Part shown: positions 7,296 to 30,297 of the stretch, one piece after another
How positions within the stretch are numbered: the stretch's first letter is position 1
How the letters are laid out: every line of letters begins with the position of its first letter
NCBI GenBank assembly: GCA_051294905.1
Contig: CM119372.1
Span: forward strand, 7,256,001-7,320,000
DNA length: 64,000 nucleotides
Direction of reading: 5' to 3'
DNA from: Botryllus schlosseri
Lineage: Eukaryota
Notes under the pieces: model-generated
Seen by the model: only the letters and a program-made list of their open reading frames with translations
What the model was told of the DNA's origin: nothing
The model's database searches: none
Made by a program: the position numbers and the translations under genes

Positions 7296-10200
7296 ATGCG
7301 GAAAGAGGAACTTACATTGCTTACAGCTCTATTTCTGACTTACAGCGCGATACGCATGGAAGCTGCCACCACAGGTTGGTATTGTAGTGAATTTTTGACG
7401 GATGAATTAAGAAACTACTAACTTGTGTTTATTCCGAGTTTAATTCCTCTTTTATTAGCCGCGAACGTATAATATAAAATGTTTTTCAACATTCTTCCAT
7501 ATCTCAGATTTCTTAACTGAGCTTGTTTAGTGACATCATATTCATATTGCGTGTTAACGGTGACGTAGGTAGAGTCTATATATCTTTTAGACGTCTCAAA
7601 TCAAACCGTTGCGCATTGATGATTCTACTACATTGATGTGCATCGAATTGCAGTATTTTCCAGCTACATTAAACATCGCACGAACCGCAGTGCATTTATT
7701 GTTTCGTGATGTAGGTCAGTGTGTGTCGTGATTTGATCGCTAACGAGTCAAATCCCCTAGACAGCCCATTTTGAAGTAATGTAATCTTGTATTTGTGTAA
7801 TTCCACTCATTAAAATTTCGGTCGACTCGTGGTTAAGAGTTACCGGATATCCAAACTGGATTAGTATGAAAGATGCCCTTTTCAGATGCAATGACGAACT
7901 CGTTTACACGACCAACAACAGCGGCCACACAAACTTCGGGATATGACAACACAACCTGTAAGCATAGCCTAATGCCGGTGCATGCTGTAGCGACTTACGT
8001 TATTCGTAATCTATTAGAAATCTTCTTCTTCAACGTGACTCCGTCTTGTTTCAGTCATATACACTATCGGCGGGAATGCAGGCGGTGATCCATGCGTGTT
8101 CCCTATGGTTTTCATGGGCGCGACGTATTATTCTTGCACCTCCGCCGGACGATCTGATGGATTTAACTGGTGCGCCACTACTTCCAGTTACGCAAAAGAT
8201 CATAAATGGGGGTTCTGCCCTGAGCCAGGTTAGACAATGTCTCCCAGTTCACAGTTCGTGGTGGAGAATTAAAGGTATTCACTGGTGGCAACAAATGCTC
8301 ATTTACATCAAAGTTGATGGATGTGGCGAATTCTGGGATCCCGAACCGTTCAACGTATTCTGTTATCAATTCAACTTCCAGTCGTCGCTCACGTGGGTTC
8401 AAGCGAGGGATGCATGTCGTCAGCAGAACTCAGAGTTACTCAGCATTGTGTCGCCACGAGAACAGGCTTGGATTGCAGGTGGCTGTTATACAGATGCGTA
8501 CATCGTTTGGTAGAGCTGTAACGCTCATGCAGCTCCAAATTTTCACAGGAAGAGTGAAAATAGTGACAACTGTTATGTGGCTTGGACTGAGCGATATATC
8601 AATTGAAGGCAATTGGGAATGGTCGGACCGGTCTCCATTGACTTATTTGAACTGGAGAGATGGTGAGTTTTACTAACATTCGGATTAACGGCTTCCCCTT
8701 ATACTTCAGCCTAAACTAAAATCGTTAAAATACCGTATGAATGTGAATTTGTGCGATCTTATTATTAGATCACATTCAAGTCATTCTCCAACACCGGAAA
8801 ATACATATTCACGAAAAATTTACTATCACTGCCATCTTATTGTATTGACATGTTCGATGATAACGACCCGCCACTGTGACTCTCCTAGCGATTCATCATT
8901 TTCACTACCAGCGTGCCTTACAAGGCCCCATAAACGGAAAATGTTTGTTACTAAATGATTTGTCACTTAGGTCAGCCCAACAGCTATGGTGGAAACGAAG
9001 ACTGCGGAGCCATCATCACTAGAAACGGTTTGTGGGGGGACACGCCATGCTCTCGGAAACTGAGCTTCATATGCAAAAAGATTGGTAAGTCATCATCTTG
9101 ATTTGAAACTATAGCTATTAAGCATACGAAAGCATGGATGTTTTGTAAGCCTATAGTATCATTTTGAATCTTGTCTATTCGTTAAGACGAAACGGCGACT
9201 CCTGATAACCCTACTCCCCCCACGTCAAATCCTAGTGAAGTGGACGTGTCATGTTACCATGGGGATGGCACTTATTACAAGGGGGACCGAAACATCACCG
9301 CATCGAACAGAACCTGTGCGGAGTGGTCAACAAAGTCACCAAATTTCGGTATATACCGTGTTTGCTGTCGTTCGTAGATGCGCTATGGCGTGTTGGTTGT
9401 TTTATCTAATTGTTCACTTATCACTCATAGTTACAATTCTGTATTAACTATACTGGTTTGTATAGTAATTCTTAATTATGATAATCTACTGTTGCAGGAC
9501 TAAGTGGATCATCATGCAGGAATCCAGACAAATCGCCGATGCCTTGGTGTTACACAACAGACCCCGCTTCAACTTGGGAATATTGTGATATACCGAAATG
9601 CATAGGTAGTCAGTCTATCAGTACAACCAGAATGGCTGTTGGTGACTATAGTTGAAATCGTATTTAATCTTTTGTTCTGTGGATTGGAAGTTGTAAATTC
9701 TGTTCTGGCTTAGCTGGTGCTTTGTCGGTTCATAAATACGCTGATGTAGCTGAGACCACCAAAGCTTTCTGAACTGAAAGTCATCGGATGCAATATTGAT
9801 ACTTTGTCTCTTCAAACGAATAGCCAATTGTGTAAAATGGAAGGCGATTAGGAATGCGATTGTGACATCGCGAACAGTCCCGTGCGGAATACGCGGTGAG
9901 CTAGTCGCACGGTTTCCCCAATTTACTGACAGTCGAACGCCATTCGTACCACTTCACGACACTGTTTTCGGAACCAAAACTAATCCTTATGCCTTATTAT
10001 GCCCTCCGCAGCGTTTGATCACCTATTACGAGCGAAATGCTTCCTGGCGATGACGAAACGAACGGCTGTTTCACTCATCCCACGGCAAACATACCCGGTA
10101 CTCGCCCTGTTCGCATCATTCATGTTTTCAGCACCGAAACACTGCAAGCGGGGTTGGAAACGCATCGGAAACCTCTGCTATAGACTCGGATGTACTATCC

Positions 10201-30297: not shown

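Follow-up and report, generated by a model that had tools for sequence, protein, structure and literature searches.

A probable co-orthologue of the vertebrate mannose receptors in Botryllus schlosseri, with kringle and ShKT-like inserts and no ricin-type domain

The mannose receptor family (CTLD group VI) is defined to include an N-terminal ricin-type cysteine-rich domain (PMC9033714, PMC4635314), and the fn2 and Ricin_B domains of MRC1 have been listed, from 22 genomes, as a domain pair of vertebrate origin (PMC11788884 Table 1). Other features of the family are a single FN2 placed directly ahead of CTLD1, 8 or 10 CTLDs in tandem, and a type I transmembrane helix followed by a short tail that carries an endocytosis motif. 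Binding of sugars by MRC1 involves CRD4 and CRD5 (PMC7949135). Endo180 works alongside uPA/uPAR, and an acidic-dileucine-type motif drives its uptake (PMC9033714). Mutation of the FN2 residues Y193, R206, D208 and Y219 of Endo180 abolishes gelatin binding, deletion of the ricin domain leaves this binding intact and CTLD1 contributes to it; PLA2R keeps most of the FN2 residues, yet is reported to be unable to internalise collagen (PMC4635314). In the current analysis we describe a related gene of the tunicate Botryllus schlosseri, encoded in a window of 64,000 nucleotides (the whole stretch of DNA analysed; positions below are those of the window).

The gene has 33 exons, read by hand, whose 4758 nucleotides form a stop-free ORF from the ATG at 7296 to the TGA at 30297 and encode 1585 residues (Table 1). 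The order of the protein is signal peptide, Ser/Thr stretch, FN2, CTLD1, kringle, CTLD2-6, ShKT-like module, CTLD7-8, transmembrane helix and tail. The continuous spliced ORF and the domain order of the preliminary description are thus retained, and its length of 1588 residues is corrected. Thirty-one of the 32 introns are GT-AG and one (27286-27354) is GC-AG. Pfam searches with single exons recognise Lectin_C in seven of the eight CTLDs, the exons of CTLD3 giving a weak UL45 lectin-like match only.

Table 1. Features of the gene in the window
Feature	Position	Strand	Evidence
Exon 1: ATG and predicted signal peptide	7296..7374	+	hydrophobic N-terminus, KD11 max 1.84 (orthologues 2.1-3.0)
Exon 2: Ser/Thr-rich spacer at vertebrate ricin position	7886..7957	+	11/26 residues S/T, no Cys; bin depth fits
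Exon 3: FN2, aa 64-105, phase 1-1	8055..8228	+	Pfam fn2 E 8e-19
Exons 4-6: CTLD1, aa 111-237, QPN/E/WGD	8314..9084	+	sequence motifs, Pfam
Exons 7-8: linker and kringle, aa 262-328, phase 1-1-1	9187..9605	+	Pfam Kringle on both exons
Exons 9-11: CTLD2, aa 333-462, QPD/S/WND, extra Cys350	10132..14186	+	Pfam, RNA
Exon 12: end of long CTLD2-3 linker	14548..14595	+	joint 14184/14546, 3 runs
Exons 13-15: CTLD3, aa 514-654, divergent, without sugar site, and linker	14671..16139	+	RNA, profiles
CTLD4, aa 674-812, EPD/E/WND; end of exon 15 and exons 16-17	16122..16666	+	Pfam, residue mapping
CTLD5, aa 832-958, EPN/E/WND; exons 18-22	16784..18387	+	RNA, residue mapping
CTLD6, aa 981-1118, EPN/Q/WAD, site incomplete; exons 22-25	18457..19782	+	Pfam, RNA
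ShKT-like six-Cys module, aa 1129-1169	19813..20807	+	RNA joint 19854/20727, Cys spacing 11-9-10-3-2
CTLD7, aa 1186-1329; exons 26-28	20859..25377	+	Pfam, RNA
CTLD8, aa 1345-1478; exons 28-31, contains GC-AG intron	25426..27435	+	Pfam, joint 27283/27353
Exon 32: Ser/Thr stalk	28781..28837	+	splice signals, frame, orthologue alignment
Exon 33: TM helix (~aa 1503-1525), ~60-aa tail, stop	30044..30297	+	hydropathy peak 3.45
AATAAA, sole AATAAA/ATTAAA in 1.3 kb 3' of stop	30863..30868	+	566 nt past stop; fits 5407-nt contig

Mapping of RNA covered positions 7860-27859, which hold exons 2-31 and 29 junctions, and 13 of these 29 are among the 15 RNA joints listed of a total of 81. The RNA check of all 32 junctions proposed earlier is answered to that extent; for the three lying outside the mapped stretch (exons 1-2, 31-32 and 32-33) the placement follows the splice signals and the alignment with orthologues, together with the length of the contig and the position of the only AATAAA. 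The spliced joints themselves are the evidence for RNA, none of the listed sequence holders being labelled as such. The joint 19854/20727 within the ShKT-like module has been observed in contigs of three runs from three studies and in two raw reads of a fourth run. The kringle junctions are not among the joints listed, and inclusion of the kringle is derived by contig arithmetic. A single contig of 5407 nt in run X5 has exon 9 at 1029-1222 and the end of exon 29 at 4277, and its coordinate equals the model position plus 42 at all eight exon pieces listed, 42 nt of the RNA contig lying 5' of the ATG. The kringle exon bin has depths of 25.0, 7.72 and 5.86 in runs X5, X8 and X1 (expected 25.2, 7.8 and 5.8). 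As the offset of 42 holds at all exon pieces listed and the bin depth is as expected, the kringle is part of the transcript, and a single spliced transcript carries both inserts, as had been claimed. A 51-nt candidate exon (16921-16971) was ruled out by the contig offset arithmetic, and an alternative donor within exon 11 by the contig offsets and the joint 14184/14546. In the one raw-read RNA run mapped, about 6% of which was read, exon coverage is near nil and expression is therefore low or tissue-restricted in that run. The exons of CTLD1 and those of the ShK-CTLD7 region each match this locus alone, and the gene is apparently single-copy.

The whole design is conserved in six other full-length proteins with 37-64% identity. 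These include the nearly full-length matches of Styela clava (XP_039267956, 64% identity to the model), Ciona intestinalis (XP_002120905.3), Clavelina lepadiformis (XP_076824515) and Phallusia mammillata (CAB3263945), the last three at 50% each, and two more. Since the design occurs in all four named ascidians found and in two more proteins, this is an old tunicate gene and not a species-specific one, for which the term lineage-specific was too narrow. The Styela orthologue at full length shows eight Lectin_C stretches, one Kringle and one fn2, and none of the 12 annotated isoform or cluster records checked lacks either insert. A phmmer search against 50% representatives places one tunicate orthologue model among the 150 matches listed, long multi-CTLD proteins being dominant. 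No description of the architecture was found in full-text literature searches; the gene is already present in RefSeq/UniProt under an MRC1 label. The inserts as such are not unique, kringle or ShK inserts being found also in annelid, mollusc and echinoderm multi-CTLD receptors. The Ciona 'MR' XP_026691626.1, as given in PMC10433773, has an accession differing from the cluster of the orthologue and was set aside.

The 63 residues ahead of FN2 contain no Cys and the ricin-type cysteine-rich domain is absent there, in agreement with the preliminary description; the corresponding stretch in six orthologues has 45-83 residues and is mostly Ser/Thr-rich. The FN2 is single, has the Cys spacing of Endo180 and lies directly ahead of CTLD1, adjoining it gap-free with vertebrate spacing. 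F70, R83, D85 and Y96 are the equivalents of the four Endo180 residues (residue mapping, PMC4635314), and these gelatin-critical positions (aromatic, R, D, Y) are kept in all seven tunicate rows. Of all the domains, CTLD1 is conserved best, with 80-84% to the four named ascidians. The FN2-CTLD1 head would thus be a candidate for binding collagen or gelatin without a ricin domain, although conservation of the residues is not proof of collagen binding, as exemplified by the reported failure of PLA2R, which keeps most of them, to internalise collagen (PMC4635314). A shrimp 'MR', as presented in PMC10341498, contains no more than two Cys in the FN2 claimed for it and has two CTLDs; it was left uncounted as an FN2-bearing relative.

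CTLD4 (EPD/E/WND) has all five site-2 ligand positions and is the counterpart of MRC1 CRD4. Its site varies among tunicates: Botryllus has EPD, Phallusia WMD and two further proteins QPN, and Ciona has no such site. CTLD5 is the best-conserved mannose-type site, with EPN/E/WND in six of seven tunicate rows and EPN/E/WSD in the seventh. Judged from these motifs, CTLD5, and in this species CTLD4 also, would bind mannose, fucose or GlcNAc via Ca2+. At the level of sequence, the transmembrane helix is type I by hydropathy and the short tail has the motifs F-x-x-F-F and [DE]xxxLV, the form [DE]xxxL[VI] occurring in 7/7 tunicate tails and 4/5 vertebrate rows; the MRC1-type tyrosine motif FxNxxY is absent from the tail. 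The acidic-dihydrophobic signal would drive clathrin uptake and endosomal sorting, followed by ligand release at low pH/Ca2+ and recycling of the receptor. The endocytic role suggested earlier is likely in view of this conserved signal, and of the proposed capture of collagen, glycans and proteins, the features for the first two are conserved.

These observations suggest that the gene is probably the tunicate co-orthologue of all four vertebrate family members (MRC1, MRC2/Endo180, PLA2R1 and LY75), and that its product is most likely an endocytic scavenger receptor which recycles constitutively. The structure of the gene, its expression, the order of its domains, their conservation in ascidians, the CTLD correspondence and the tree position have been observed, and the roles of the kringle and of the ShKT-like insert are the least supported steps of this reading. 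The receptor would probably sit on phagocytes and absorptive gut epithelium, according to a second-hand report on Ciona 'Mrc1', which is perhaps a different gene.

The kringle is recognised by Pfam on both of its half-exons (E 2.8e-5 and 2.7e-12); exon 8 alone scores 47.3 bits with PF00051 (cut-off 34.3), and the whole kringle of Styela 58.5 bits. The domain has six Cys in kringle spacing and is a phase 1-1 cassette in the CTLD1-2 linker. That linker exceeds 60 residues in 42 of 105 other multi-CTLD receptors, many of which are close kin, in none of 43 ricin+8-CTLD proteins and in 7/7 tunicate rows; for linker 6-7 the corresponding counts are 3/105, 0/43 and 7/7. The linker is an old insertion socket in the multi-CTLD receptors of bilaterians, and the kringle in it is an exon-shuffled cassette. 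A kringle tree resolves its deeper branches weakly (supports 34-66) and does not discriminate between a shared and a separate origin with the kringles of Owenia or of the tunicate paralogue. The loop between Cys2 and Cys3 has 16 residues in 6/7 tunicate rows and 22-32 in the other complete kringles aligned. The lysine-binding site of plasminogen K1/K4 type has an anionic centre of Asp55/Asp57 and a cationic centre of Arg35/Arg71 (PMC9736318). In all seven tunicate rows aligned the canonical site was not found, the second Asp being replaced by Ser and the equivalent of Arg71 being absent. With this site gone, the kringle would most likely act as a spacer or hinge, or bind protein in a non-lysine manner.

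An alternative, which we consider unlikely, is that both inserts are dedicated ligand-capture or regulatory domains and the receptor is functionally unlike the vertebrate mannose receptors, with a dock for a protease or co-receptor replacing the uPA/uPAR partnership of Endo180 (PMC9033714), or a contact of the ShKT with a membrane channel or polyanion. The retention of both inserts in 7/7 full-length tunicate rows would fit this, as would the kringle, whose identity to the model (49-69%) is on a par with that of most CTLDs and which has the short loop and an invariant D-x-S motif in common. The ShKT-like module is strongly basic in 7/8 rows examined (10 K/R and 5 D/E in the model), and it is also among the least conserved extracellular domains (24-61%), which together with the missing lysine-binding residues speaks against capture; a structural role explains the conservation equally well. 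The protein capture once attributed to the inserts is not borne out for the kringle, which has no Asp57 and Arg71 equivalents, nor for the ShKT-like module, whose Pfam score is below the cut-off. In the scavenger receptor favoured here the module is a tunicate-specific insert of the CTLD6-CTLD7 linker, most likely structural or polyanion-contacting.

The ShKT assignment is itself the weakest element, being sub-threshold in Pfam and backed by Cys spacing and a fold search. That the insert is an unrelated disulfide-rich linker resembling ShKT is nevertheless improbable. Its case lies in the Pfam ShK family (PF01549), which matches neither half-exon, none of the whole proteins searched (the Styela orthologue among them), and 2/7 rows at E<=10 (best E 0.013, below the cut-off). 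An HMM of 16 mollusc ShK domains gives only 6-8 bits on the module, and Foldseek gave no matches for the model. The module is not flanked by its own introns, being split by a phase-0 intron (19855-20726) into exons shared with CTLD6 and CTLD7. Against this, six Cys, a C-x-D start and a CxxxCxxC end are invariant in 7/7 relatives and the same in the model, and the module is the best-scoring site of the ShK HMM in each of three proteins. In the PDB the top sequence match (E 0.093) is to a ShTK-domain protein, and the alignment pairs all six Cys. An AF2 model of the segment of a relative (pLDDT 76.7, from the seven-row alignment only) was used for a fold search in which all six chains with Z>=2 among 48,161 are ShK-type, two of them being taken as such by us, at Z of only 2.3-3.3. 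For a relative of 500 residues, AF2 run on the single sequence gave a useless model (pLDDT 39.8). An ESM Atlas feature search had an ShK cluster only at rank 3 with a score of 0.76, below the noise level. The disulfide pairing of ShK is 1-6, 2-4, 3-5, and its fold has two helices.

The eight tandem CTLDs, interrupted by the two inserts, are collinear with MRC1 in one-to-one correspondence, which confirms the eight-CTLD scaffold described earlier. Profiles of the tunicate CTLDs score best on the CTLD of the same number at 7/8 positions in macaque and bat MRC1, at 4/8 in an MRC2-like row, at 3/8 and 6/8 in PLA2R-like and at 2/8 and 3/8 in LY75-like rows, the CTLD7 profile never being best on its own position. 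Two trees were built from CTLDs only, with FN2 excluded. The first (34 rows x 994 columns, LG+G4) gives 100 UFBoot for the tunicate clade, the vertebrate group and the branch joining them. The second (20 rows, LG+C20 PMSF) gives the joint branch an SH-aLRT of 97 and rejects grouping with the tunicate 12-CTLD paralogues (p-AU 0.0002). The tunicate stem branch, at 0.6-0.9, is long, the composition of three rows is unusual, the second tree is a quick search, and the outgroup rows, trimmed to their last eight CTLDs, may in part misalign. In the trees the tunicate proteins are sister to MRC1+MRC2+PLA2R+LY75 and not nested within them. We class the gene as a co-orthologue standing outside strict structural membership of the mannose receptor family.

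The absence of ricin might alternatively be a derived state, in which the tunicate-vertebrate ancestor had ricin, FN2 and eight CTLDs, and in the tunicate line ricin was lost and the two inserts were acquired; the history would be reversed and the mechanism unchanged, and we regard this as having a small probability. Tunicates often lose genes and domains, the Ser/Thr spacer occupies the exact ricin position, and two weak PF24562 matches in a 3085-residue ORF of another contig are ricin-like modules elsewhere in the genome. Ricin+FN2 is, however, absent in every invertebrate multi-CTLD receptor examined, and a single gain is the more parsimonious history, the alternative requiring a loss as well. 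The pair is dated to vertebrates in PMC11788884 Table 1, where one Ciona annotation cannot separate loss from never having had it. As FN2+ricin is listed there as a vertebrate innovation, the absence is probably ancestral; from that table and the tree, a ricin domain was probably never there to be shuffled out. A convergent assembly, in which a tunicate multi-CTLD gene gained FN2 on its own and has no special kinship with mannose receptors, is very improbable, for although a Styela/Ciona paralogue, whose kringle occupies the same linker and whose FN2 follows scaffold CTLD3, indicates that FN2 and kringle exons are mobile in tunicates, and there are 18 FN2 matches in the genome and a long stem branch, both trees join tunicates to vertebrate mannose receptors, the AU test rejects the paralogue grouping, and the FN2-CTLD1 spacing and tail motif are shared.

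FN2, eight CTLDs and an endocytic tail were present in the tunicate-vertebrate ancestor, and ricin apparently came later. Tentatively, the gene could be a living record of a proto-mannose receptor of that ancestor, with FN2 newly placed on the bilaterian eight-CTLD scaffold and a kringle-holding socket that was later emptied in vertebrates, where ricin was added and the gene split into MRC1, MRC2, PLA2R and DEC-205. If so, receptor-mediated collagen clearance would predate vertebrates, one tunicate protein would unite an Endo180-type collagen head and an MRC1-type CTLD4/5 sugar site, and the short-loop kringle and ShKT-like module would bind ligands still to be identified. The gene helps to date the assembly of the medically important family of CD206, Endo180, the membranous-nephropathy antigen PLA2R and DEC-205, and a ricin-less, apparently single-copy co-orthologue in the tractable Ciona allows ancestral mannose receptor functions to be tested. 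The surprise is limited, since the mechanism itself is probably familiar.

MRC1 (CD206) resembles the tunicate receptor in FN2, eight collinear CTLDs and TM, and in the complete Ca2+/sugar ligand sets of CTLD4/CTLD5, the FN2 collagen residues and the [DE]xxxLV tail. The tunicate gene differs in the absence of the ricin/CysR domain, by reason of which a sulfated-sugar site is not expected, and of FxNxxY. It adds the kringle in linker 1-2, the ShKT-like module in linker 6-7, and a long linker 2-3 with a conserved Cys480 that makes up an extra conserved Cys pair with C350. MRC2/Endo180/uPARAP is alike in the FN2-CTLD1 collagen surface residues and the acidic-dihydrophobic motif, the CTLD1 profile scoring 127.9 bits on an MRC2-like row against 95-110 on MRC1-type rows; Endo180 carries a ricin-like domain, is free of inserts and has its sugar site in CTLD2, whereas the tunicate CTLD2 site is without the glutamate ligand.

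The ShKT domains of MMP23 (2K72), NaK1 (7L2G) and aurelin (2LG4) share with the module the six-Cys pattern and, by prediction, the small helical fold (rmsd 2.3-2.9 A over 36-38 residues); the module differs in a longer Cys1-Cys2 loop, in being embedded in a receptor ectodomain and in lying below the Pfam cut-off. The four ascidian predictions, auto-named 'macrophage mannose receptor 1(-like)', have the same domain order with kringle and six-Cys insert, and their precomputed Pfam lists give kringle and FN2 and no ShK. In UniProt F6TGD6, a homology-style model of the gene in Ciona that is named 'C-type mannose receptor 2', precisely the two inserts are left out. These records form an annotation trap; with such a model and with Pfam blind to the module, surveys of domain shuffling would miss the architecture.

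Long receptors with at least 12 CTLDs, identified in amphioxus, hemichordate, echinoderm, mollusc, annelid, fish/lamprey and as the second tunicate paralogue, have the C-terminal eight-CTLD block and TM in common with the tunicate gene. They often hold cassettes in or near linker 1-2, namely kringle (Owenia, tunicate paralogue), ShK pairs (molluscs) or F5/8-SUEL-LCCL (fish, amphioxus). They differ in having no N-terminal FN2 and extra N-terminal CTLDs and form a separate branch in both trees, and their ShK lies before scaffold CTLD2, whereas that of the tunicate gene lies between CTLD6 and CTLD7.

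The receptor gene, read exon by exon by hand and checked by script, runs on the forward strand from an ATG at 7296 to a TGA at 30297 and comprises 33 exons, 4758 nt and a stop-free frame of 1585 aa, a length given as 1588 aa in the preliminary description. The window has 41% GC and the exons are small; the host genome is of 495.5 Mb. Introns are of the GT-AG type in 31 of 32 cases and GC-AG in the other. Pfam searches with 23 single-exon translations identify fn2 (E-value 8e-19), Kringle in two consecutive exons (2.8e-5 and 2.7e-12) and, for seven of the CTLDs, Lectin_C in their exons; neither half-exon of a six-cysteine module has a ShK match. 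Local HMMs place FN2 at residue 64, followed by a CTLD, a kringle at 262, five CTLDs, the six-cysteine module at 1129, two CTLDs and a trans-membrane segment at 1501. The arrangement first proposed, of FN2 and eight CTLDs with an inserted kringle and ShKT-like module, is borne out. A pyrimidine-rich acceptor-like AG occurs at 7255-7257, 39 nt upstream of the ATG and near the inferred RNA contig start (42 nt); the transcript may begin with a non-coding exon further upstream, or with a leader added by trans-splicing.

RNA from four of the 24 listed runs, belonging to four studies, was aligned to 7860-27859, which corresponds to exons 2-31, with junctions 1-2, 31-32 and 32-33 lying outside. At least 13 of the 29 model junctions in this interval are seen, among the 15 of 81 joints listed, and they include the GC-AG intron. 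The intron inside the six-cysteine module is supported by contigs of three runs and two raw reads; exon reads are almost nil in the raw-read run. In a contig of 5407 nt from run X5, all eight listed exon pieces between exon 9 and exon 29 lie at exactly the model position plus 42, which fixes the lengths of all the exons between, and the 988 coding nt and 42 nt preceding exon 9 require both kringle exons. The bin that holds the kringle has a depth of 25.0, 7.72 and 5.86 in runs X5, X8 and X1; a single contig in each would give 25.2, 7.8 and 5.8. Junction mapping, which had been proposed earlier, therefore places both inserts in the transcript by contig arithmetic, depth and joint, contigs being evidence that exons are present while rare skipped forms could still exist. 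At 27168, the first base of exon 30, RNA of several runs has A and the genome G; as this third codon position encodes valine either way, the difference is probably allelic.

The same design is found in Styela clava (64% identity), in Clavelina, Phallusia and Ciona (each about 50%), genera that together span the three ascidian orders, and in two JGI proteins (39% and 37%); a 500-aa fragment is 72% identical. Of 12 records examined, for isoforms or clusters, every one keeps both inserts, and it is exactly these two modules that are missing from F6TGD6, the UniProt model of the Ciona protein. The Ciona isoform X3 (XP_026695902.1) terminates after CTLD7, without CTLD8 or membrane anchor, and is possibly a secreted form. 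The CTLD1 exon and the exon joining the six-cysteine module to CTLD7 each match only this locus in their own genome. These orthologues are already in public databases under automatic names. No description of the architecture was found in the full-text literature covered, which takes in few subscription journals, nor in the accessible portions of PMC514892, PMC13186322, PMC10433773 and PMC10341498.

In a tree built from the CTLDs alone (34 rows, 994 columns, LG+G4) the seven full-length tunicate proteins are monophyletic (support 100) and sister to MRC1, MRC2, PLA2R and LY75 (100), MRC2-like and PLA2R-like rows being identified by PDB matches and LY75-like rows by their ten CTLDs only; the joint branch has support 100 and the long 12-CTLD receptors stand apart. 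In a 20-row subset under LG+C20 PMSF the joint branch has an SH-aLRT of 97. Tunicate CTLD profiles score the same-numbered CTLD best at seven of eight positions in macaque and bat MRC1, and the match is weaker for other vertebrate paralogues; CTLD7 never picks its own position. On these comparisons the protein is the sister of the mannose receptor family and, having no ricin domain, is outside it by strict structural definition; it probably works like the family. By local HMM a ricin domain is present in 57 of the 272 proteins examined, none of the 57 with a kringle. The pair fn2 and Ricin_B of MRC1 appears as of vertebrate origin in Table 1 of PMC11788884, the part consulted. Addition of the ricin domain in vertebrates is the simplest reading; its loss in tunicates is the less simple one. 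Grouping of the protein with the tunicate long paralogues is rejected in the 20-row subset (p-AU 0.0002). Those paralogues (Styela XP_039270230, Ciona cluster XP_078489850 and Clavelina) combine 12 CTLDs with domains of the F5/8, LCCL and trefoil types, and group with fish and lamprey 12-CTLD receptors; in Styela and Ciona they carry an internal FN2 after scaffold CTLD3 and a kringle in the linker that also holds it in the present gene.

Receptors of amphioxus, hemichordates, echinoderms, molluscs and annelids also contain the C-terminal eight-CTLD block in recognisable form. The first linker of this block is longer than 60 aa in all seven tunicate proteins, in none of 43 ricin-bearing eight-CTLD receptors and in 42 of 105 receptors with the block, many of which are close kin and a few of whose long linkers may conceal missed CTLDs. 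Two Owenia proteins, like the Styela and Ciona long paralogue, have a kringle in this linker, and mollusc ShK pairs lie just before scaffold CTLD2. The kringle therefore occupies an insertion site of long standing. It is made of two exons flanked by phase-1 introns and its Cys2-Cys3 loop is shortened; the equivalents of Asp57 and Arg71, as the accessible text of PMC9736318 defines the lysine-binding site, are absent in all seven proteins.

The linker between CTLD6 and CTLD7 is long in just 3 of the 105 other receptors, which makes the six-cysteine module the more tunicate-specific novelty. Its six cysteines and a C-x-D motif are invariant in all seven relatives. The match to Pfam ShK is sub-threshold (best E-value 0.013), the top PDB sequence match is a ShTK-domain protein (0.093), and in a comparison of an AF2 model (pLDDT 76.7) with 48,161 chains every match is a peptide of the ShK type, though at low Z of 2.3-3.3. 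The module is very probably ShKT-like. Its exons also encode parts of CTLD6 and CTLD7, and it is hence no clean shuffled exon; at least 53 ShK matches occur elsewhere in the genome. Another feature of the tunicate proteins is a pair of additional cysteines, C350 within CTLD2 and C480 within the linker that follows it, which all seven keep and which may form a disulphide.

Other features of the window
Feature	Position	Strand	Remarks
Aldehyde dehydrogenase, intronless, 478 aa	62296-63732	+	scores highest against succinate-semialdehyde dehydrogenase (TIGR01780), with 624 bits, a little under the cut-off of 646
Near-perfect 550-nt palindromic element	11732-12282 (intron 9)		arms 216 nt, 95% complementary, with inner 44-nt pair
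hAT transposase dimerisation-region-like remnant	11175-11426 (intron 9)	+	E 0.038, below cut-off
Two hydrophobic open frames	38890-40283	-	one with NPxxY-like motif

A second intronless aldehyde dehydrogenase (64% identity) is found on contig G000:C15, and several further matches in the genome are likewise long open frames; the intronless copies are possibly retrocopies. The palindromic element resembles a MITE and occurs in RNA contigs in great abundance; similar sequence is present in translations near 55326 and 60349-60453. The hydrophobic frames have no Pfam match at E 0.05 and are possibly a divergent GPCR gene, the NPxxY-like motif being typical of the seventh helix of GPCRs.

The Endo180 positions Y193, R206/D208 and Y219, mutation of which abolishes gelatin binding, correspond to F, R, D and Y in all seven tunicate proteins; the accessible text of PMC4635314 also reports that binding is unaffected by deletion of the ricin domain and that CTLD1 contributes. 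No domain is better conserved than CTLD1, with 80-84% among the named ascidians. In this protein CTLD4 (EPD) and CTLD5 (EPN) each have the full set of five Ca2+ site-2 ligands, the sugar site being constant across tunicates in CTLD5 and variable in CTLD4. The ligand consensus agrees with the MRC1 rows. The tail motif [DE]xxxL[VI] occurs in all seven proteins and in the MRC1, MRC2-like and PLA2R-like rows; a motif of this type drives Endo180 uptake, as stated in the available part of PMC9033714. The FN2 and CTLD1 residues, the CTLD4 and CTLD5 sites and the tail motif are together best read as those of a receptor that would recycle and would scavenge fragments of collagen as well as glycans of the mannose type. 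The accessible portion of PMC10888236 cites, second-hand, a Ciona 'Mrc1', possibly the orthologue, as expressed in stomach inner-fold epithelium. The gene helps to date the assembly of the family and offers a single-gene test system; its mechanism is probably not a new one. With Endo180 it has in common the FN2 cysteine spacing, the gelatin-binding positions and the uptake motif, and differs from it in having no ricin domain; with MRC1 it shares the same two CTLDs with complete site-2 ligands, which are those that MRC1 uses according to the accessible text of PMC7949135.
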